From: a virus
Lineage: Duplodnaviria > Heunggongvirae > Uroviricota > Caudoviricetes
DNA: 6,775 bases
Reading direction: 5' to 3' (one strand)
Virus record (IMG/VR): IMGVR_UViG_2671180460_000004
Span: 1-6,775 of that record
The notes under the pieces: generated by a model
Seen by the model: only the letters and a program-made list of their open reading frames with translations
What the model was told of the DNA's origin: nothing
Databases searched by the model: none
Position numbers and translations under genes: made by a program
Part shown: positions 1 through 6,775 of the stretch, one piece after another
Layout of the letters: each line of letters starts with the position of its first letter
Numbering within the stretch: the stretch's first letter is position 1

Positions 1-95
1 ACTGGCTGGTCGTCCTGATTAACCTGGTGTTCTGCGTGCTGGTGATACGAGCACGCGGGAACGTATCAAAAATCCTTGTATTACGAAGGCGCTGA
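1..95 (+). CDS. Probable holin, C-terminal fragment (5' end lies outside the window)
   Basis: Frame 3 is open from the window start to TGA at 93-95 and reads WLVVLINLVFCVLVIRARGNVSKILVLRRR: a hydrophobic segment followed by a basic tail, as in holin C-termini. The stop lies 1 nt before the endolysin ATG at 97. Only about 30 aa are visible and no homology was recognised. Confidence 0.35.
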   Translation, partial: WLVVLINLVFCVLVIRARGNVSKILVLRRR

Positions 96-96
96 T

Positions 97-642
97 ATGA
101 AGTCGAAAGATGAAATTTTTGACGAAATTCTGGGAAAAGAGGGCGGTTACGTCAATCACCCGGATGATAAAGGTGGTCCGACTAAATGGGGCATCACTGA
201 AAAAGTTGCCCGTGCACACGGTTATCAGGGCGATATGCGTGACCTGACGCGTGGGCAGGCGCTGGAAATACTCGAGGCGGACTACTGGTACGGACCACGA
301 TTCGACCAGGTTGAGGACCTGTCTCCTGATATTGCCGCAGAGTTGTGCGATACGGGCGTGAACATGGGGCCAACTGTGGCGTCCAGAATGCTTCAGCGCT
401 GGCTGAACGTTTTCAACCTGCGCGGGAAACTCTATCCGGATATGGATGCTGATGGACGCATCGGGCCGCGTACTCTTAATGCATTACGGGCATATCTGAA
501 AAATCGCAGCAGGGATGGTGAACTGGTACTGGTGAAAGCCCTGAACTGTACGCAGGGCGAGCGTTATCTGGAGCTGGCAGAGAAACGCGAGGCCAATGAG
601 TCGTTTGTCTATGGCTGGATGAAAGAGCGCGTGGTGGTTTAA
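97..642 (+). CDS. Endolysin, glycoside hydrolase family 108 type with C-terminal peptidoglycan-binding region (181 aa)
   Basis: ATG at 97 is preceded by GAAGG at 84-88; stop TAA at 640-642. The N-terminus MKSKDEIFDEILGKEGGYVNHPDDKGGPTKWGIT matches the GH108 motif (EGGY...D...KGG.T.WGI) as I recall it. The track ORF 76..642 begins at an upstream TTG, which I consider less likely. No signal peptide or SAR-like N-terminus is visible. Confidence 0.85.
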   Translation: MKSKDEIFDEILGKEGGYVNHPDDKGGPTKWGITEKVARAHGYQGDMRDLTRGQALEILEADYWYGPRFDQVEDLSPDIAAELCDTGVNMGPTVASRMLQRWLNVFNLRGKLYPDMDADGRIGPRTLNALRAYLKNRSRDGELVLVKALNCTQGERYLELAEKREANESFVYGWMKERVVV

Positions 643-740
643 AAACTGACACTGAAGTGCTGAACACCCTCAACTCATGCAGGCTCTTTTCTGGGGCTAC
701 GATGAGCGAAAGTAAGGGGCATAGCATCAGATAGCAAAAA

Positions 741-777
741 CCCCGGCTGCGGTAACAGTCCGGGGTTTTCTGTTTCT
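741..777 (+). terminator. Rho-independent terminator
   Basis: GC-rich hairpin CCCCGGCTG / CAGTCCGGGG (741-765, one bulged T) followed by TTTTCTGTTTCT (766-777). An A-run at 736-740 precedes it, so it could act in both directions. Confidence 0.6.
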
Positions 778-802
778 GGCCCTGGGTAAGGCAAAGGAGA
801 AC

Positions 803-985
803 ATGAGGAAGTATAAACTAATTCTGTTGAGGTTGACTATGAAAAACGGCCTTGAATTAAAAGCGCCTGTAACTGATGACATCAGCAGAGCGGTGGCTTT
901 TGCCATTAAGTGGGTGGCTGTCGGTATCGCTGTGTCTCCGATTCTGTATGGGATGGCAAAATTGATCATTGCTGTGAAATCGTAA
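803..985 (+). CDS. Hypothetical small membrane protein (60 aa; alternative start ATG 839 gives 48 aa)
   Basis: AAGGAG at 795-800 is only 2 nt from ATG 803; the alternative ATG 839 has GAGG 9 nt upstream. The C-terminal half FAIKWVAVGIAVSPILYGMAKLIIAV is hydrophobic and transmembrane-like. No recognisable homology. Confidence 0.3.
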   Translation: MRKYKLILLRLTMKNGLELKAPVTDDISRAVAFAIKWVAVGIAVSPILYGMAKLIIAVKS

Positions 986-1002
986 GTGGGGCAGGGGTAA
1001 AT

Positions 1003-1137
1003 ATGTCAGATAGCATTATAAAACTGGCGCGAATTCTCTGTGTGGTTGTTGGCCTTTCATTTTCAGCAATGTTGGTTGCCATTTTCATTTCCACCGCCTG
1101 GCGAGTATTGAGCTTATCCGGATTGATTGGTGGATAG
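1003..1137 (+). CDS. Hypothetical small transmembrane protein (44 aa)
   Basis: ATG 1003 with AGGGG 6 nt upstream; stop TAG 1135-1137. Product MSDSIIKLARILCVVVGLSFSAMLVAIFISTAWRVLSLSGLIGG has one clear hydrophobic helix. The track ORF 910..1137 starts further upstream without a good RBS. Confidence 0.4.
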   Translation: MSDSIIKLARILCVVVGLSFSAMLVAIFISTAWRVLSLSGLIGG

Positions 1138-1141
1138 CGAG

Positions 1142-1324
1142 ATGAAGCGAAAACACTGGACACACAGAATGCCGCGAACGGCAGCGAAATGGGCACTGGT
1201 AGCGATACTGGTGCCTTTTTTATTGGTGGGATGCGTCAGCCTGGATAAGGCGCGTCAGTTTTTCGATACAGCTTCTCAGGTCTGTGAAATTGTCGACGGT
1301 GTCCGGCAGTGCATGCAGAACTGA
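1142..1324 (+). CDS. Predicted small lipoprotein (60 aa precursor, about 30 aa mature, Cys-containing)
   Basis: ATG 1142 with GGTGGA 7 nt upstream; it overlaps the preceding ORF in a different frame. N-terminus MKRKHWTHRMPRTAAKWALVAILVPFLLVGC has a basic n-region, a hydrophobic core and a lipobox-like LVGC. The mature part CVSLDKARQFFDTASQVCEIVDGVRQCMQN has V at +2 and two further cysteines. Confidence 0.45.
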   Translation: MKRKHWTHRMPRTAAKWALVAILVPFLLVGCVSLDKARQFFDTASQVCEIVDGVRQCMQN

Positions 1325-1486
1325 TCGCCTGTAAGAGCAGAATATTTTGCTGAAAAATGAAGGATGCGCCAGCGTCCGGAAAGCATGAAATTCTGCTGCG
1401 TGTACCAATTTTATCTTATTCATTCTAAATCTTGCCGAATCAAGCAACTGCCCGGGCGGCAAGGGGTATTTTTATCCGGAGGGGAT

Positions 1487-1711
1487 ATGAAGAGATTACT
1501 GGTAACCGTAAAGCCCTTTAACGGAACGATTCCATTCAGGGTTTTGCAGCGTGGACGTGTTCTGGTTAAGGATATCTTCAGTGGTAAATGCACGGAATGT
1601 TATTCCCGGACATATGAAGTGGATGCCACGGATGAAGAAATTTCTGTTGAATGTGATCTGAACGCGAATATGGCGGGGATTGTAACAGCCACGTTGTTGC
1701 CGGTTTCATGA
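1487..1711 (+). CDS. Hypothetical protein (74 aa) with a CxxC motif
   Basis: ATG 1487 with GGAGG 4 nt upstream; stop TGA 1709-1711. Product MKRLLVTVKPFNGTIPFRVLQRGRVLVKDIFSGKCTECYSRTYEVDATDEEISVECDLNANMAGIVTATLLPVS. The antisense ORF 1578..1925 has implausible composition. Confidence 0.45.
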   Translation: MKRLLVTVKPFNGTIPFRVLQRGRVLVKDIFSGKCTECYSRTYEVDATDEEISVECDLNANMAGIVTATLLPVS

Positions 1712-1751
1712 ATGACATAGAATGTCTCTGGGTACCCAAAAGGAGAACACT

Positions 1752-1967
1752 ATGTTTGTAGAAAATAACCTGAAGGCTGATCCTGATAATCAGGGATGGG
1801 TTCTGGGTTGGGCTGTAGTACGTGACAAACCGTGGCATCTGGTCGGTATTTATGCGACGGAGGATGGCGCAAAGTCTAAACGCTCTGAATTGAATGGGGA
1901 GTATGAAGTTCGTTATGGTTCCCATCGTTTAGGTAGTGATGATTTTATGTCTGTCGGACTTAGCTAA
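1752..1967 (+). CDS. Hypothetical protein (71 aa)
   Basis: Strong RBS AGGAG at 1741-1745, 6 nt before ATG 1752; stop TAA 1965-1967; followed by the terminator at 1989-2016. Product MFVENNLKADPDNQGWVLGWAVVRDKPWHLVGIYATEDGAKSKRSELNGEYEVRYGSHRLGSDDFMSVGLS, Trp/Gly-rich and mildly acidic. Confidence 0.6.
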   Translation: MFVENNLKADPDNQGWVLGWAVVRDKPWHLVGIYATEDGAKSKRSELNGEYEVRYGSHRLGSDDFMSVGLS

Positions 1968-1988
1968 CTGGCTGTGATGCCTGTTTGT

Positions 1989-2016
1989 AGCCCCGCAAAT
2001 GCGGGGCTTTTTATAT
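1989..2016 (+). terminator. Rho-independent terminator
   Basis: Near-perfect hairpin AGCCCCGCA-aa-TGCGGGGCT (1989-2009) followed by TTTTTAT. Confidence 0.65.
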
Positions 2017-2028
2017 TTGGAGACGATA

Positions 2029-2325
2029 ATGAAAAAAACAGAAAATAAACCGGTTGCAATTGGTGCCGCTGTTGTTCCGTTTAAGTTTGAGTTGTCTCAA
2101 CTGGTGGAGATGCGCATCAGTGATGAATGGGGTGAGGTTAAAGCCCGCGCGCAGTATGCGGATGGCGAAAATCAGTACTTACTCTACTACAAGGCTGCTG
2201 ATGGTCGCGCCACAACGGAGTGGTTTGGTGAGTCAATGCTGGAAGCAACAGAAGATGATCGCCATCCGGGCTGTCCGGTATTTGCCGGTATGAAATTACC
2301 GGAAGGCGCGGTCGTTACTGAGTAA
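2029..2325 (+). CDS. Hypothetical acidic protein (98 aa)
   Basis: GGAG at 2019-2022, 6 nt before ATG 2029; stop TAA 2323-2325. Product MKKTENKPVAIGAAVVPFKFELSQLVEMRISDEWGEVKARAQYADGENQYLLYYKAADGRATTEWFGESMLEATEDDRHPGCPVFAGMKLPEGAVVTE has about 17 acidic and 11 basic residues. The overlapping out-of-frame track ORF 2054..2293 is rejected. Confidence 0.6.
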   Translation: MKKTENKPVAIGAAVVPFKFELSQLVEMRISDEWGEVKARAQYADGENQYLLYYKAADGRATTEWFGESMLEATEDDRHPGCPVFAGMKLPEGAVVTE

Positions 2326-2539
2326 CAGCAGGCATTATCGCAGCCCTTCACTGAGGGGCCGCGATAATGTGAGGAATAAAAAACCGGTCACAGGGAGCAG
2401 CTACACAGAACCGGCTGGCGAAGACTGCCAATATCACCCGGGCATCGGTACAACATACTTATGACAATAGACGGTATTGATGTAAATGCAATATCATATC
2501 AGAAAATAATAATTTATTGTATGAAAAGAATATTGAGAT

Positions 2540-2570
2540 AAAAATGCCAACCCATTATCTATGGGCTGGC
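2540..2570 (-). terminator. Rho-independent terminator for the minus-strand gene 2597..2797
   Basis: On the minus strand: hairpin GCCAGCCCAU-agaua-AUGGGUUGGC (2570-2546; 10-bp stem with one G-U pair) followed by AUUUUUAU. It sits 26 nt beyond the gene's stop. Confidence 0.5.
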
Positions 2571-2596
2571 ATAATGATTAGTCCGAAAGTGAATAT

Positions 2597-2797
2597 TTAA
2601 AGAAACTGATTAAATTCCTTAACTGAATCATGCAGTTCGTATTCTTTCAGGTTTTTGATAATCGCTTCCCTTCGCTCTGGTGGTAGTTGAGCCATGAGGA
2701 AACCGACGACACATTTTAGCTGCCCAATTTCTTTATTGAGATCATGAATGTTTTTGGCATTACATTCCATCTGTAATCTGAAATTCTTCTTAATCAT
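2597..2797 (-). CDS. Hypothetical small protein (66 aa) encoded antisense to the late operon, in an AT-rich island
   Basis: Minus-strand ORF with ATG at 2797-2795, preceded on the minus strand by AAGGGA about 7 nt upstream. Product MIKKNFRLQMECNAKNIHDLNKEIGQLKCVVGFLMAQLPPERREAIIKNLKEYELHDSVKEFNQFL is Lys/Glu-rich and probably helical. Its own terminator lies downstream at 2540-2570. No homology recognised. Confidence 0.5.
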   Translation of the reverse strand: MIKKNFRLQMECNAKNIHDLNKEIGQLKCVVGFLMAQLPPERREAIIKNLKEYELHDSVKEFNQFL

Positions 2798-2880
2798 ATT
2801 TATTCCCTTATGATGATGTGGAAGAGGTATTTATCCTGGAGAGTGGCAGTAATGGCCACTGACCGAGCAGGTATTTTAAC

Positions 2881-2946
2881 CAGATTCATGATTAATGAAA
2901 ATATTGATAATTGATCAGATTCATATGAAATTAATAATGATAATTG
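2881..2946. repeat. Imperfect tandem direct repeat (two units of about 33-35 bp) in AT-rich DNA upstream of cosN
   Basis: Unit 1 (2881-2915) is CAGATTCATgattaatgaaaataTTGATAATTGat and unit 2 (2916-2946) is CAGATTCATatgaaattaataaTGATAATTGct. Both begin with CAGATTCAT and end with TGATAATTG. Confidence 0.4.
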
Positions 2947-2949
2947 CTC

Positions 2950-3160
2950 TCATTTGTGCGGGTCCTTCCGGTGGGGTGGCCTGCCACGGGGCGGCAGCGG
3001 CGCGGATTTTCGCTATTTATGAAAATTTTTCGGGAAAAAGCGTGTCGGTACTTCTCGTGTATAACTCATTGTTTTTTCATCAATCACATCCGTAAAAGGT
3101 CCGACATGAAAGTGCCCGAAAAAGACGTTTTTGAGCACTTCCATGTCGGACCCTGCATTT
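2950..3160 (+). other. cos: cos site: cosQ-like segment, cosN (predicted 12-nt cohesive end at 2989-3000) and cosB with three R-like elements
   Basis: 2960-3035 (GGGTCCTTCCGGTGG...CCACG GGGCGGCAGCGG CGCGGATTTTCGCTATTTATGAAAATTTTTCGG) aligns with the lambda cos junction as recalled from memory (GGGTCCTTTCCGGTG...TTACG | GGGCGGCGACCT CGCGGGTTTTCGCTATTTATGAAAATTTTCCGG). cosB candidates: an R3-like GTGTCGGTAC at 3042-3051 and a perfect 11-bp inverted repeat GGTCCGACATG (3098-3108) / CATGTCGGACC (3142-3152), laid out like lambda R3/R2/R1. The Nu1-like gene starts immediately downstream. Confidence 0.75.
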
Positions 3161-3176
3161 GATATGGAAATGTTTT

Positions 3177-3725
3177 ATGAAGGTTAATAAAAAGAAGCTC
3201 GCGGAAATTTTCAACGTGGATCCACGAACGATTGAACGCTGGCAGTCTCAGGGGCTCTCTTGTGTCTCTGGTGGTAGTAAGGGGGTTGAATCTGTATTTG
3301 ATACCGCCATGGCAATTCAGTGGTATGCGCAACGCGAAGCCGATATTGAAAACGAAAAACTCCGCAAAGAGACCGAGGATTTGCGTGCGGCTGCGGAATC
3401 AGATTTACAACCCGGCACCATTGACTATGAACGCTACCGACTCACAAAAGCACAGGCTGATGCACAGGAACTGAAAAATGCCCGCGAAGAAGGGCTGGTA
3501 CTGGAAACGGAATTGTTTACCTTCATTCTGCAACGTGTGGCACAGGAGATTTCGGGGATACTTGTACGTGTGTCGCTGACATTACAGCGTAAATATCCGG
3601 ATATTTCACCGTCACACCTTGATGTGGTGAAAACTGAAATCGCAAAAGCCTCCAACGTTGCAGCTAAAGCTGGTGAGAACGTAGGCGGGTGGATTGATGA
3701 TTTCAGACGCACAGAAGGCAGCTAA
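3177..3725 (+). CDS. nu1: Terminase small subunit (lambda Nu1 homolog, 182 aa)
   Basis: [41 protein letters not shown]... closely parallels lambda Nu1 MEVNKKQLADIFGASIRTIQNWQEQGMPVLRGGGKGNEVLY..., and later stretches match too ([32 protein letters not shown]). ATG 3177 is chosen by this alignment; the track ORF starts at TTG 3159. Stop TAA 3723-3725. Confidence 0.9.
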
Positions 3726-5613
3726 TGCAGCCGGTGCGATAGCAACAGGGCTTGTATCTCTCAATATTCCGGTACCACTGACGACAGTTCAGTGGGCTGA
3801 TCAGCATTATTATCTGCCAAAAGAGTCTTCATATACTCCCGGGCAATGGGAAACACTGCCGTTTCAGGTTGCCATCATGAACAGCATGGGGAATGACCGG
3901 ATCCGCACCGTTAATCTGATTAAATCGGCGCGTGTTGGTTACACCAAAATGCTGTTGGGGGTGGAGGCTTATTTTATTGAACACAAATCCCGTAACAGCC
4001 TGCTTTTTCAGCCGACAGATTCTGCGGCAGAAGATTTTATGAAATCCCATGTCGAACCAACGATAAGAGACGTTCCTGTATTACTGGAGCTGGCTCCGTG
4101 GTTTGGCAGAAAACATCGGGACAACACGCTTACCCTGAAACGTTTCTCCTCCGGTGTGGGATTCTGGTGTCTGGGCGGAGCTGCTGCCAAAAACTACCGT
4201 GAAAAATCTGTGGATGTGGTCTGCTATGACGAACTCTCCTCGTTTGAACCGGATGTGGAAAAAGAAGGTTCACCAACCCTGCTTGGCGATAAGCGTATCG
4301 AAGGTTCGGTATGGCCTAAATCCATACGCGGCTCAACGCCCAAAATTAAAGGTTTTTGCCAGATTGAAAAAGCCGCGAACGAATCTGCACATTTTATGCG
4401 GTTTTATGTGCCATGCCCTCATTGTGGTGAAGCCCAGTATCTGAAGTTTGGCGATGATGCGACAACCTTTGGCCTGAAATGGGAGAAGGGCAAGCCGGAG
4501 ACGGTGTATTACCTGTGTGAACATAATGGCTGCGTGATCCGTCAGTCGGAACTTGACCAGACCGACGGGCGGTGGATTTGTGACAATACCGGGATGTGGA
4601 CGCGTGACGGTCTGACATTTTACAGCGCCGGTGATGAGGAAATCCCGCCACCGCGCTCAATCTCGTACCACATCTGGACGGCATACAGCCCGTTCACCAC
4701 CTGGGTACAGATTGTTTATGACTGGCTTGATGCACTGAAGGATCCGAATGGCGTCAAGACGTTCATTAACACCACGCTGGGGGAGCCTTATGAAGAGGCT
4801 GTGGCAGAAAAACTGAGCTTTGAGTTGTTGCTGGAAAAAGTCTGCCACTATGATGCGCAGGTTCCCCTGCGGGTGGTTTACCTGACCGCAGGGATCGACT
4901 CTCAGAAAAACCGTTATGAGATTTATGTCTGGGGCTGGGCTCCTGGCGAAGAAGCTTTTCTGATTGACAAGCAGATCATCATGGGGAGACCGGAAGATGA
5001 GGACACCCTTAAACGCGTTGATGCCGTGATCCGGAAAAAATACCGTCATGCAGATGGCACTGAAATTTCCATTTCCCGCGTCTGCTGGGATACCGGTGGT
5101 ATTGACCAGGACATTGTGTATCAGCGATCCAGAAAACACGGTACTTTTTTTGTGCTCCCCATCAAAGGGGCGTCGGTGTACGGCAAGCCGGTAATCACCA
5201 TGCCAAAAAAGCGAAACCAGCGTGGGGTGTTTTTGTGTGAGGTGGGTTCCGATACCGTCAAGGAAATGCTGTATGCGCGTTTTGCACTGCCGGTGGTATC
5301 TGCCAGTGAAGTCGCACCGTATACCTTCCGTTTTCCGGATAACCCGGACATTTTTTCTGATGTTGAAGCTAAACAACTCGTGGCAGAAGAGCTGGTTGAA
5401 AAAGTTGTGAACGGGCGGGTGAAACTCCAGTGGGATGCCAGAAAACGGCGTAATGAAGCCCTGGACTGTCTGGTGTATGCCTATGCAGCGCTGCGCATTT
5501 CCGTTCAGCGGTGGCAACTGGATCTGGATGCACTGGCCCGCGCCAGAAGAGATGAACAGGACGACGATGAAATGACTATTGAAGAAATCGCGGCTGCTCT
5601 GAGTGGAGGATAA
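3697..5613 (+). CDS. A: Terminase large subunit (lambda gpA homolog, 638 aa)
   Basis: Similar to lambda gpA along its whole length, e.g. [25 protein letters not shown], the atypical Walker A-like KSARVGYT at residues 76-83 (nt 3922-3945) and the C-terminal [23 protein letters not shown] 3697 follows the TTG at 3694 used by the track. The gene overlaps the Nu1 3' end by 29 nt in another frame, as lambda Nu1/A do. Stop TAA 5611-5613. Confidence 0.95.
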
Positions 5614-5616
5614 GTG

Positions 5617-5826
5617 ATGATTTATACGCATGAAATGCTATGCGATGCCCGCCGGGCGTTACATGAACTGATGATCGGACGTGCTGTGGTTTCCGTCAGC
5701 AAGGACGGGCGTCAGGTTCAGTATTCGCGGGCGACAATTGGTGAACTGCGTCAGTATATTGAAGAGCTGGAAAGTGCGCTGGGTGTATCCGGACGGCGTC
5801 GTGGCCCGGCAGGAGTGTGGCTGTGA
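5617..5826 (+). CDS. W: Head-tail joining / head completion protein (lambda gpW homolog, 69 aa)
   Basis: GGAGGA at 5605-5610, 6 nt before ATG 5617. Product MIYTHEMLCDARRALHELMIGRAVVSVSKDGRQVQYSRATIGELRQYIEELESALGVSGRRRGPAGVWL aligns with lambda gpW (...[26 protein letters not shown]...YIAELE...RRRGPAGFYV). Stop TGA 5824-5826. Confidence 0.85.
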   Translation: MIYTHEMLCDARRALHELMIGRAVVSVSKDGRQVQYSRATIGELRQYIEELESALGVSGRRRGPAGVWL

Positions 5827-6775
5827 ACGGTGAACTGGTGGATATTCATGGGCAGCCTTTACGGCAAAGCATGGGATATTCTGGTGGTGGTTCCGGGTTC
5901 GGTGGGCAAATGGCAGAATGGCTGCCTGCACCGGAAAGTGCCGACGTGGCGCTCTTACCTTCCATTCATCTGGGTAACGCCCGCGCGGATGATCTGGTCC
6001 GTAACAACGGTATTGCATCGAATGCAGTGGAAATTCATAAGGATCATATTGTCGGGCACATGTTTCGTCTGAGTTACCGTCCCAACTGGCGCTGGCTGGG
6101 GATGTCGGAAGCAGATTCACATGCTTTTATTGAAGATGTTGAGGCGGCGTGGATGGAATACTGCGATCCGGTGTTTGGTACGATGGATGTGGAAGGGCGT
6201 CGTTCGTTTACCGAATTCATTCGTGAAGGGGTGGGTGTCCATACTTTTAATGGAGAAATTTTTGTCCAGCCTGTATGGGATGCGGAATCCACGTCATTAT
6301 TCCGGACGAAATTCAAAACCATCAGCCCGAAGCGTGTCAGTACACCCGGTTATGGTACCGGCGATCGTTTTATGCGTGCCGGGGTGGAAATAAACCGACA
6401 CGGAAAAGCGCTGGCCTACCATGTTCAGGATGATGACTGGCCCGGCTACGGTGTCAGTAAATGGACACGAATTACGGCAACACTGCCTTCCGGACGACCG
6501 GGAATGATCCATGTGTTTCAGCCACAGGAAGACGGGCAGACCCGCGGGGCCAACCAGTTTTATTCTGTAATGGAGCGTCTCAAGATGCTCGACACACTGC
6601 AGGCCACGCAACTGCAGTCGGCGGTGGTTCGCGCCATGTATGCCGCCACGATTGAATCCACACTGGATTCGGAAAAAGCGTTTGAATATATCGCCGGGGT
6701 GGGAGATGGAGGTAAAAATCCCCTGAACACCATCATGAAAGGCTACGCGCGTTATTACGCCACCAATACGGTAAA
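5823..6775 (+). CDS. B: Portal protein (lambda gpB homolog), 5' partial; the reading frame continues past the window end
   Basis: Frame 3 is open from 5763 to the window end, which is why the supplied track (complete ORFs only) does not list it. The translation ...GYSGGGSGFGGQ...LPSIHLGNARADDLVRNNGIASNAVEIHKDHIVG...FIREGV...FNGEIFVQ...IHVFQPQEDGQTRGANQFYSVMERLKMLDTLQATQLQSAVVRAMYAATIES closely matches lambda gpB. The proposed start is GTG 5823, with AGGAG at 5811-5815 seven nt upstream, overlapping the gpW stop (GTGA). Confidence 0.9.
   Translation, partial: MNGELVDIHGQPLRQSMGYSGGGSGFGGQMAEWLPAPESADVALLPSIHLGNARADDLVRNNGIASNAVEIHKDHIVGHMFRLSYRPNWRWLGMSEADSHAFIEDVEAAWMEYCDPVFGTMDVEGRRSFTEFIREGVGVHTFNGEIFVQPVWDAESTSLFRTKFKTISPKRVSTPGYGTGDRFMRAGVEINRHGKALAYHVQDDDWPGYGVSKWTRITATLPSGRPGMIHVFQPQEDGQTRGANQFYSVMERLKMLDTLQATQLQSAVVRAMYAATIESTLDSEKAFEYIAGVGDGGKNPLNTIMKGYARYYATNTV

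Follow-up and report, generated by a model that had tools for sequence, protein, structure and literature searches.

Of the known steps of phage lysis, the breaching of the outer membrane shows the least diversity; it is achieved mostly by spanins, with one characterised disruptin besides. In phage lambda the Rz/Rz1 genes occupy a slot in the late operon with a tight junction to the upstream gene. The outer-membrane spanin (o-spanin) Rz1 is made as a lipoprotein precursor of about 60 amino acids, with periplasmic cysteine(s) in the pair, and is accompanied by an inner-membrane spanin (i-spanin). In the 2018 census of Kongari et al. (BMC Bioinformatics 19:326; PMC6139136) spanin pairs had a combined periplasmic length of 62-300 residues and 91 of 677 surveyed phages (about 13%) had no identifiable spanin. 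The shortest entry, a singleton family classed as a 'separated' two-component spanin, is that of phage phiP27; its i-spanin (20348..20542) has 64 amino acids, 32 of them periplasmic, and its o-spanin (20706..20861) contributes 30 periplasmic residues (83% helix), giving 62 in total (PMC6139136). Here we analyse ORF3, an open reading frame (ORF) encoding a homologue, 92% identical, of this phiP27 o-spanin. ORF3 lies downstream of the endolysin gene in a 6,775-nucleotide stretch of a Caudoviricetes virus (IMG/VR record IMGVR_UViG_2671180460_000004, positions 1 to 6,775), the whole of which is referred to as the window. This DNA forms the late region of a lambdoid prophage, the phage being a lambda-like siphovirus. 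ORF3 is the invariant last gene of a widespread lysis cassette and fills the slot of Rz/Rz1, with which it alternates. The i-spanin assigned to it in phiP27 is spurious, and at roughly even confidence we read ORF3 as a stand-alone disruptor of the outer membrane.

A sequence-only reading of the window had placed an endolysin, a terminator and three small ORFs in this region, and all were found at those positions. It had also noted that no canonical spanin pair follows the endolysin, and a lipoprotein gene does indeed occupy the spanin position. The features of the cassette are as follows.

3..95, plus strand: 3′ end (last 30 codons) of the second holin gene, from a tblastn match to phiP27 L29; coding ends at 92 and the stop codon is 93-95.
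97..642, plus strand: canonical endolysin with no signal-anchor-release (SAR) sequence; Pfam matches to Glyco_hydro_108 (E 1.2e-26) and PG_binding_3 (E 9e-27).
803..985, plus strand: ORF1, predicted single-pass membrane protein of 60 amino acids; the N-terminus is basic and the one hydrophobic segment is C-terminal (about residues 30-57; hydropathy).
1003..1137, plus strand: ORF2, predicted single-pass membrane protein of 44 amino acids with one hydrophobic segment at about residues 9-31 (hydropathy).
1142..1324, plus strand: ORF3, predicted lipoprotein precursor of 60 amino acids; signal peptide residues 1-30 (1142-1231), lipobox LVGC, Cys31 at 1232-1234.
1283-1285 and 1310-1312, plus strand: Cys48 and Cys57 of the 30-residue mature ORF3 peptide, predicted to be amphipathic and helical from its hydrophobic moment and hydropathy.

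All three small ORFs match PHROG families of unassigned function (ORF1, phrog_1115, E 2e-40; ORF2, phrog_4906, E 1.6e-19; ORF3, phrog_7528, E 8e-38). Across relatives the ratio of nonsynonymous to synonymous substitution rates (dN/dS; pairwise Nei-Gojobori) is 0.26 for ORF1, 0.25 for ORF2 at a dS of 0.65, and 0.18 for ORF3. By these matches and ratios, the three are genuine genes rather than chance ORFs. Their signal peptide and membrane segments were called by regular expression and hydropathy rules. The stretch AILVPFLLVGC of ORF3 matches a PROSITE-type lipobox pattern in which Cys31 is the predicted lipidation site, bearing out the lipoprotein-type signal ending in LVGC and the mature part of about 30 residues with two further cysteines that had been described. 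The ATG at 1142 is conserved and lies 4 nucleotides after the ORF2 stop; the overlap of ORF3 with ORF2 that had been reported exists only if ORF3 is read from TTG 1127, and disappears when the conserved ATG is used. A start at Met10 (51 amino acids), preferred by many gene callers, was rejected, since many homologues have Thr, Val, Ile or Gln in place of this Met, while residues 1-9 are conserved. The mature peptide carries a net charge of -1 (3 K/R, 4 D/E), has a hydrophobic moment of 0.60-0.65 and displays a heptad-like hydrophobic seam (L34-A37-F41-A44-C48-V51). The signal peptide is the only hydrophobic segment of ORF3, which lacks the C-terminal transmembrane domain of a unimolecular spanin (T1 gp11 type).

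The ORF3 family comprises 158 clusters at 90% identity and 21 at 50% among 1.84 billion representative proteins, and its named sources are all Enterobacterales. Members have 54-71 amino acids with the spacing C-x16-C-x8/9-C, the exceptions being a few longer, apparently chimeric gene calls and fragments; these aside, an exhaustive profile search covering the 21 clusters gave no member with a longer periplasmic domain. Neither the Gly-Cys of the lipobox nor Cys48 varies. The further cysteine follows Cys48 by 8 residues in subfamily A and by 9 in subfamily B, with one exception (P0102). Residue +2 in the aligned members is nearly always Val, Ala, Thr, Gly or Ser, is Glu in the most distant member (P0138) and is never Asp; sorting to the outer membrane is thus expected under the Lol rule of E. 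coli. Members of the main subfamily share an n-region (MKRKHWTHRxPR) that is unusual in its length, basic character and conservation, and their signal peptide as a whole is at least as conserved as the mature part; the n-region is different in the distant subfamily (P0137, P0138). ORF3 DNA is present in 306 of 5426 complete E. coli genomes, at up to seven places per genome. The suggestion of a 'degenerate or non-canonical' spanin system can be divided accordingly: non-canonical agrees with the listing of the phiP27 homologue by Kongari et al., while degenerate is at odds with this distribution and with the purifying selection on the gene. ORF3 had no match in Pfam (E <= 0.1), NCBIfam, PADLOC or a PDB sequence search.

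The gene neighbourhood was compared in about 95 loci, namely 80 from IMG/VR, three from species-representative genomes (Salmonella, Citrobacter and Lelliottia; a scan of one genome per species gave three ORF3 loci), and others from phage records and E. coli chromosomes. The IMG/VR loci are the best 80 of 265 matches to ORF3; a second set is the best 80 of 411 matches to ORF2. Six-frame ORF clustering from -3 to +2.8 kb in 89 loci left only two holins and the endolysin as conserved neighbours of ORF3. A Phage_holin_8 protein (phiP27 L28) occurs in 78 of the 89 and a Phage_holin_3_7 protein (phiP27 L29) in 79. The endolysin of this clustered set is of the Peptidase_M15_4 type in 45 loci and of the glycoside hydrolase family 108 (GH108) type in 37. 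When 95 loci were tabulated, 87 had an endolysin before ORF3, and contig ends cut off most of the others. The order of the phiP27-type cassette is Phage_holin_8 protein, Phage_holin_3_7 protein, canonical endolysin (GH108 or M15) and ORF3 lipoprotein. The part of the cassette in the window follows this order. Its holin stop codon is one base ahead of the endolysin ATG, the endolysin matches phrog_315 (endolysin; E 9.5e-54), and the full-length homologue of its holin in the E. coli R1 prophage matches Phage_holin_3_7 (PF05449, E 8.5e-21). The R1 prophage is the best match to the window among complete E. coli genomes, with 96% identity over 77% of positions 1-3200.

ORF3 is also tightly joined to the gene before it. 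In 41 of 87 loci the endolysin stop and the ORF3 ATG are separated by at most 15 nucleotides (14 in 35 loci). The junctions include an overlapping ATGA in L028 (GTATGA), GAGGATGAGCGATG in L101 and gaps of 3-6 nucleotides in L101 and L102; they look translationally coupled. In the remaining loci the interval holds ORF1 and ORF2 (499 nucleotides, as in the window), a short ORF1-like gene (247-334 nucleotides), a 93-amino-acid ORF or, in phiP27, a minus-strand ORF of 90 amino acids. The order is kept with either endolysin type and with three holin arrangements (holin_8 with holin_3_7, Phage_holin_3_1, and a 117-amino-acid membrane ORF in Lelliottia). Even distant members conform. The gene for P0135, which is 37-43% identical to the ORF3 of the window, is preceded, in this order, by Q, a Phage_holin_3_1 holin gene and an M15 endolysin gene; that for P0138 comes after a GH108 endolysin; and the Lelliottia copy follows a GH108 endolysin that is itself preceded by the 117-residue membrane ORF, which has no family assignment and is probably the holin. 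The downstream packaging modules, by comparison, are of at least five kinds (lambda-like at 99% or 65% identity, P27-type TerS, others at about 23%), and the virion modules range from the Mu-like contractile-tail myovirus phiP27 to lambda-like siphoviruses. As these modules vary and the lysis neighbours remain constant, ORF3 evidently travels with the lysis module and not with a virion or receptor module. This type of cassette is common in E. coli, Salmonella, Citrobacter and their relatives, and genes for Shiga toxin (Stx) 2e/2k and LT-II toxin are found nearby.

The place taken by ORF3 is the one taken by Rz in other phages. The megablast match of the window to PhiR12-type phages covers positions 761-1145 (ORF1 and ORF2) and stops at the ORF3 ATG; in PhiR12_3 a 155-amino-acid Rz gene begins precisely where the match ends. 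In the set of 80 IMG/VR loci chosen by ORF2, the ORF2 homologue is followed by ORF3 in 41 (at +4/5 nucleotides) and by Rz in 36; the contig ends first in the other three. The Rz gene is at +7 nucleotides or overlapping in 32 loci (30 of them at +7) and lies further downstream in four. A short ORF1-like gene likewise abuts ORF3 in phiSTEC1575-Stx2k and Rz in GER2, with a nearly identical TGGTGGTGAnATGAA junction. In the loci examined, P27-type holins were always paired with ORF3 and S-R-type cassettes (SAR endolysin) always with Rz, and none combined an intact ORF3 with a lambda-type Rz. Decayed copies of ORF3 do occur beside other cassettes. Those in GER2 and L158 lie downstream of Rz beside an S-R-Rz cassette and have four in-frame stops, and the copy in E. 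coli EC12, downstream of a lambda-holin/GH24 cassette, is truncated at nucleotide 113. In the study of Pinto et al. (PMC8136144), 277 of 279 Stx phages have Rz, and two phages have a metallopeptidase (canonical) endolysin, which is exclusive to cluster C. From these counts we infer that the two phages without Rz are the two with the metallopeptidase endolysin.

No partner for ORF3 could be located. Between the endolysin and terminase genes of the window, no ORF combines a membrane segment at the N-terminus with a long hydrophilic tail, and in the 89 loci no conserved ORF with an N-terminal membrane segment was found near ORF3 in any frame from -3 to +2.8 kb. The 41 loci in which ORF3 follows the endolysin by at most 15 nucleotides leave no room for a partner gene between them. 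A spanin pair encoded elsewhere was looked for in the closest fully sequenced relatives, phiP27 and the R1 prophage (about 49 kb, from int through tail-fibre assembly, inserted between potC and potB), and its absence from the window phage relies on these two. Neither has an annotated spanin. A de novo scan sought ORFs bearing a lipobox and ORFs in which a hydrophilic tail follows an N-terminal membrane segment. It recovered Rz, Rz1 and Bor in the controls 933W and PhiR12_3, and in the whole of phiP27 and of the R1 prophage returned ORF3 only.

The published phiP27 assignment is bioinformatic and leans on the partner. The lipoprotein belongs to the ORF3 family, with the same 30 mature residues and the same place after the endolysin. 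The proposed i-spanin starts at TTG and its insert is confined to phiP27 and L089 (two of about 95 loci), where in L089 it is cut to 36 amino acids. It is an antisense shadow of the minus-strand 90-amino-acid ORF, which is conserved at full length (45% identity, E 3e-19). This minus-strand ORF of 90-91 amino acids lies between the endolysin and ORF3 in phiP27 (L002 3654-3926) and in L089 (3042-3317). On this comparison the published partner is spurious and ORF3 an orphan lipoprotein. Taken without a partner, its periplasmic length of 30 residues falls below the 62-300 of the census and would not bridge the periplasm.

Other candidate partners were also rejected. L31 of phiP27 and a related Lys-rich ORF of 42 amino acids have no membrane segment and are confined to about five loci. 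L22 of phiP27 has an N-terminal membrane segment and charged helices; it is, however, a 409-amino-acid GIY-YIG protein with no counterpart annotated in the R1 prophage. In that prophage a DUF1482-annotated ORF (L185 13486-13743, next to dicB) and a secreted 67-amino-acid ORF are early-region genes with no relation to the late lysis cassette; we take the former to resemble YdfD of the K-12 Qin prophage, a small membrane-anchored protein. The Lys-rich ORF is helical (MKKKKNLNKKDAAS...ELLALFDKT) and comes directly after ORF3 in L019 (7223-7351) and also in L037 and L038; in phiP27 its homologue is fused, within L31, to an out-of-frame tail of the endolysin gene. We note that the lipoprotein ORF is unannotated in phiP27 and in Actinobacillus phage vB_Apl-pPE4, and that the RefSeq coding sequence L32 of phiP27 is a wrong frame over the lipoprotein gene (L002 3952-4183; phiP27 20630..20861).

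Compared with Rz/Rz1, then, ORF3 has the same late-operon slot, the same tight junction with the upstream gene, a precursor of similar length and periplasmic cysteines. It differs in that lambda has an i-spanin and mature Rz1 has 10 prolines in 40 residues, whereas mature ORF3 has none. ORF3 is also predicted to be helical, shows no BLASTP similarity to Rz1 of 933W and is too short to reach the inner membrane. The reading that we favour, with the even confidence already expressed, is that ORF3 would be the outer-membrane-step gene of the phiP27-type cassette and would disrupt the outer membrane on its own, with no inner-membrane partner. What the sequences show is where the gene lies, how closely it is joined to the gene before it, its lipobox and conserved cysteines, the purifying selection on it, the lack of a partner and the mutual exclusion with Rz.

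For its late expression, lipidation, localisation, disulfide state and lytic activity we infer the following course. ORF3 would be translated from the late transcript, which Q antitermination would carry past the terminator at 737-775. Sec would export the precursor, Cys31 would receive the lipid, and signal peptidase II would remove the signal peptide. Lol would deliver it to the inner leaflet of the outer membrane, residue +2 being Val, Ala or Thr and not Asp. Cys48 and Cys57 would be oxidised in the periplasm; Cys48 sits on the hydrophobic seam, which would suit a disulfide-linked parallel dimer. After the holins and endolysin have cleared the peptidoglycan, the lipid-anchored amphipathic helix would locally destabilise the outer membrane without bridging to the inner one. 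Rather more tentatively, we suggest that a lipid-anchored, disulfide-bonded amphipathic peptide of 30 residues may alone suffice for the last step of lysis, as a third mechanistic class beside spanins and cationic disruptins.

The precedents for such a mechanism, the disruptin and small bacteriolytic lipoproteins, are loose. Colicin lysis proteins and entericidin B are lipobox precursors of about 45-60 amino acids that yield lipopeptides of about 30 residues able to permeabilise or lyse the envelope. The architecture of ORF3 is closest to theirs, with no homology; it differs in composition, in the extra cysteines and in its location in a phage late operon. The disruptin gp28 of phiKT (Holt et al., bioRxiv 10.1101/515445) is, like ORF3, a small amphipathic helical peptide that would take the place of spanins without spanning the periplasm. 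It is however highly cationic and is not described as a lipoprotein, whereas ORF3 has a lipoprotein signal, a predicted lipid anchor and two extra cysteines; the two share no homology. Since ORF3 is not cationic and is predicted to be lipid-anchored, it is no disruptin in the defined sense.

Several observations weigh against a stand-alone disruptor. Besides the looseness of the precedents, the net charge of the mature peptide is -1, unlike the cationic disruptin, and 30 residues cannot bridge the periplasm, so the fusion mechanism of spanins cannot apply. Unrelated lipoprotein cargo can adjoin lysis genes, as bor does in lambda. The absence of a spanin may simply be tolerated, as the roughly 13% of surveyed phages with none identifiable would suggest. 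Two LT-II prophages (L095 Rac-SA53 5798-6938; L096 SerU-LTIIb 5219-6368) have the holin-holin-GH108 order followed directly by eltIIA/B in the place of ORF3, with neither ORF3 nor Rz; ORF3 is thus dispensable for prophage maintenance. The loci compared are mostly related E. coli prophages with ORF3 90-98% identical, and some contigs were fetched twice, so that the counts are of non-independent events. An AlphaFold2 model of ORF3 (23-sequence alignment) is one long helix with a predicted local distance difference test score (pLDDT) of 67, too weak for a fold search.

It is unlikely, though worth weighing, that ORF3 is instead a cargo gene (moron) outside lysis, conferring receptor-masking superinfection exclusion in the manner of T5 Llp or phi80 Cor, or another lysogenic-conversion trait. 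Llp and the Cor proteins of phi80 and N15 are, like ORF3, small phage-encoded outer-membrane lipoproteins, and T5 Llp contains cysteines. ORF3 is small, contains cysteines, is prophage-borne and is predicted to reside in the outer membrane, and other cargo clusters here: ant, bor and LT-II toxin genes in relatives and a low-GC island at 2400-3100 in the window. In a scan of 3.3 kb, however, ORF3 had no promoter-like site of its own upstream and no terminator directly downstream; it reads in the same direction as the late gene before it, the two being coupled by a gap of 4-15 nucleotides or by an overlap, and its GC content (about 50%) is that of the cassette. Llp and Cor genes sit with receptor-binding or tail genes and block the phage's own receptor, whereas ORF3 is linked to the lysis cassette. 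This linkage holds across myovirus and siphovirus tail types, which is unexpected for a receptor-specific blocker, and decay has affected every copy found beside another cassette (S-R-Rz; lambda-holin/GH24). When 50,697 phage records were searched with ORF3 by tblastn (E <= 1e-3), five matched, all of its own family and none T5-like; Pfam, PADLOC and NCBIfam had no match either. The receptor blocking of T5 Llp type that had been put forward for this lipoprotein is accordingly poorly supported.

We consider it improbable that ORF3 is the o-spanin of a minimal two-component spanin whose inner-membrane half is an i-spanin nearby or elsewhere, a holin or a host protein. The pairing of 20706..20861 with 20348..20542 in phiP27 by Kongari et al. 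speaks for such a spanin, as do the lipoprotein signal, conserved periplasmic cysteines and cassette position typical of o-spanins. The census also has another very short o-spanin, that of Pf-WMP3, with 32 periplasmic residues; its i-spanin has a periplasmic domain of 131. The proposed phiP27 i-spanin is, however, the TTG-started antisense frame described above. The 41 tight junctions allow no partner between endolysin and lipoprotein, neither the neighbourhood of ORF3 nor the whole of phiP27 or the R1 prophage offers a conserved ORF with an N-terminal membrane segment, and ORF1 and ORF2, with nearly no periplasmic residues (hydropathy) and absent from about half of the loci, were rejected as inner-membrane subunits for these two reasons.

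Least probable is that ORF3 acts as a colicin lysis protein (bacteriocin release protein) or entericidin does, with precursor, mature form and stable signal peptide jointly perturbing the envelope, for example by activating outer-membrane phospholipase A: the 60-residue precursor, LLVGC-type lipobox and mature lipopeptide of about 30 residues are shared, and the well-conserved signal peptide of the main subfamily, including MKRKHWTHRxPR, recalls the functional stable signal peptides of release proteins, but Pfam gave no match at E <= 0.1, and so neither Lysis_col nor Entericidin, conservation of the n-region does not extend to the distant subfamily (P0137, P0138), the gene lies in a phage late operon rather than a colicin operon, and release proteins are not known to have the two extra cysteines or to be helical. 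Such a mechanism is in any case a special case of a stand-alone disruptor and not a separate identity for ORF3.

ORF1 and ORF2 stand apart from the lipoprotein. The three small ORFs had been treated as one unit, but ORF1 and ORF2 are missing from about half of the lipoprotein-carrying loci, and the same module lies between R and Rz in Stx-type (PhiR12-type) phages. Searches of Pfam, NCBIfam, PADLOC and PDB sequences gave no match to either, and no toxin or holin family. Homologues of ORF2 occur in 276 phage records, mostly of Stx-converting phages and including 933W. In 933W the homologue (27438..27566; L090 2501-2629) is unannotated between ant and Rz, the family size being 43-50 amino acids; about 270 other Stx-phage records carry the family, and most of those examined either leave the region blank or have no annotation at all. 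Genes found in relatives between the endolysin and the outer-membrane-step gene include ant, the 93-amino-acid ORF, the minus-strand 90-amino-acid ORF and LT-II toxin genes, and from this variety the interval clearly looks like an insertion hot spot. We treat ORF1 and ORF2 as a putative optional accessory pair of inner-membrane proteins inserted there, which may have a minor role in lysis timing or be toxin-like cargo.

Two further features bear on this pair.

About 737..775, both strands: bidirectional intrinsic terminator (A-tract, stem-loop, T-tract), from folding energy; it forms the 5′ edge of the ORF1 module.
810..839, minus strand: sigma-70-like promoter match TAGTCA-N18-TATACT within ORF1 codons 3-13; the -10 is TATAAT in L010 and L025.

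The terminator was seen by folding, a simple terminator scanner having missed the hairpin. Its arms are CCCCGGCTG/CAGtCCGGGG, followed by the T-tract, and the fold has an energy of -31.1 kcal/mol (z -2.9) on the plus strand and -31.7 kcal/mol (z -4.35) on the minus strand. Because a conserved A-tract and T-tract flank the stem, it is taken to act in both directions. The stem arms show compensatory changes (GGCTG/CAGtCC against GTTTG/CAAGC or CAAAC, on comparison of the window, L001 and L158). The terminator is found 5′ of ORF1 in both the ORF3-type and the Rz-type cassettes and was therefore assigned to the ORF1 module and not to the endolysin. Speculatively, the element at 810..839 could start an antisense RNA of about 65-70 nucleotides running over the ORF1 ribosome-binding site and ending at the terminator, a geometry that might recall type I toxin-antitoxin pairs. 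The match is 9 of 12 positions, about five such matches being expected by chance in 3.3 kb, and its conservation is inseparable from the coding constraint on ORF1. An Rfam search of window positions 1-3300 gave no match.

It is possible, if doubtful, that ORF1 is a type I toxin-like membrane protein held under such an antisense RNA, or that ORF1 and ORF2 together tune holin timing, in either case as accessories to the outer-membrane step. The conserved terminator with its compensatory changes, the antisense RNA that the promoter-like element would yield and the purifying selection on both ORFs are consistent with this idea, and Lcc6 of LambdaSo, a small membrane protein required at the holin step, offers a precedent. 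Set against it are the chance expectation and coding location of the promoter match, an interval between terminator and ATG too short for a dedicated ORF1 promoter, the loss of both ORFs from about half of the cassettes and the lack of a toxin or holin family match.

A run of small ORFs lies between the endolysin and the terminase genes; from 3159 the window encodes lambda-type terminase (Nu1/A-like), head-tail joining (W-like) and portal genes. Three small plus-strand ORFs 3′ of ORF3 (1487..1711, 1752..1967 and 2029..2325; phrog_2571, phrog_4280 and phrog_1935) are conserved and have no membrane segments, and the first two have recognisable homologues in the distant locus L100 (1359..1604 and 1663..1878). 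The low-GC island at 2400-3100 (GC 0.34-0.36, with about 0.5 in the flanks) encodes a minus-strand ORF of 66 amino acids (2597..2797, phrog_6806), accompanied by a terminator-like hairpin (2572..2544, minus strand) and by promoter-like sites (2901..2873 and 2822..2793). It has the look of a classic cargo gene (moron) with its own transcription, placed shortly before the terminase genes. We also note that vB_Apl-pPE4 (L003) has the same cassette and about 94% DNA identity to E. coli prophages across this region, with Actinobacillus pleuropneumoniae recorded as its host; it may be worth checking this host label or where the isolate came from.

The homologue of ORF3 had already been listed as a putative o-spanin, so the resemblance itself is not new. 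What is new is that the published phiP27 partner is spurious, that the lipoprotein is the invariant last gene of the cassette and that it alternates with Rz/Rz1 in one slot. About 13% of the surveyed phages of Gram-negative hosts have no identified solution for the outer membrane, and common E. coli phages of the present kind may finish lysis by an undescribed last step. If so, the prophage lineage relying on a new class of disruptor would be one present in about 5-6% of complete E. coli genomes, and the Stx2e and Stx2k phages would rely on it too. Because genes for Stx2e/2k and LT-II lie near the cassette, the way in which it completes lysis bears on the release of toxin and phage. Should the lipoprotein prove inert in lysis, the lineage would be a clean spanin-less model in which to find the factor responsible; should it work alone, it would be a minimal, genetically tractable peptide that breaches the outer membrane, and a published spanin assignment would be corrected.

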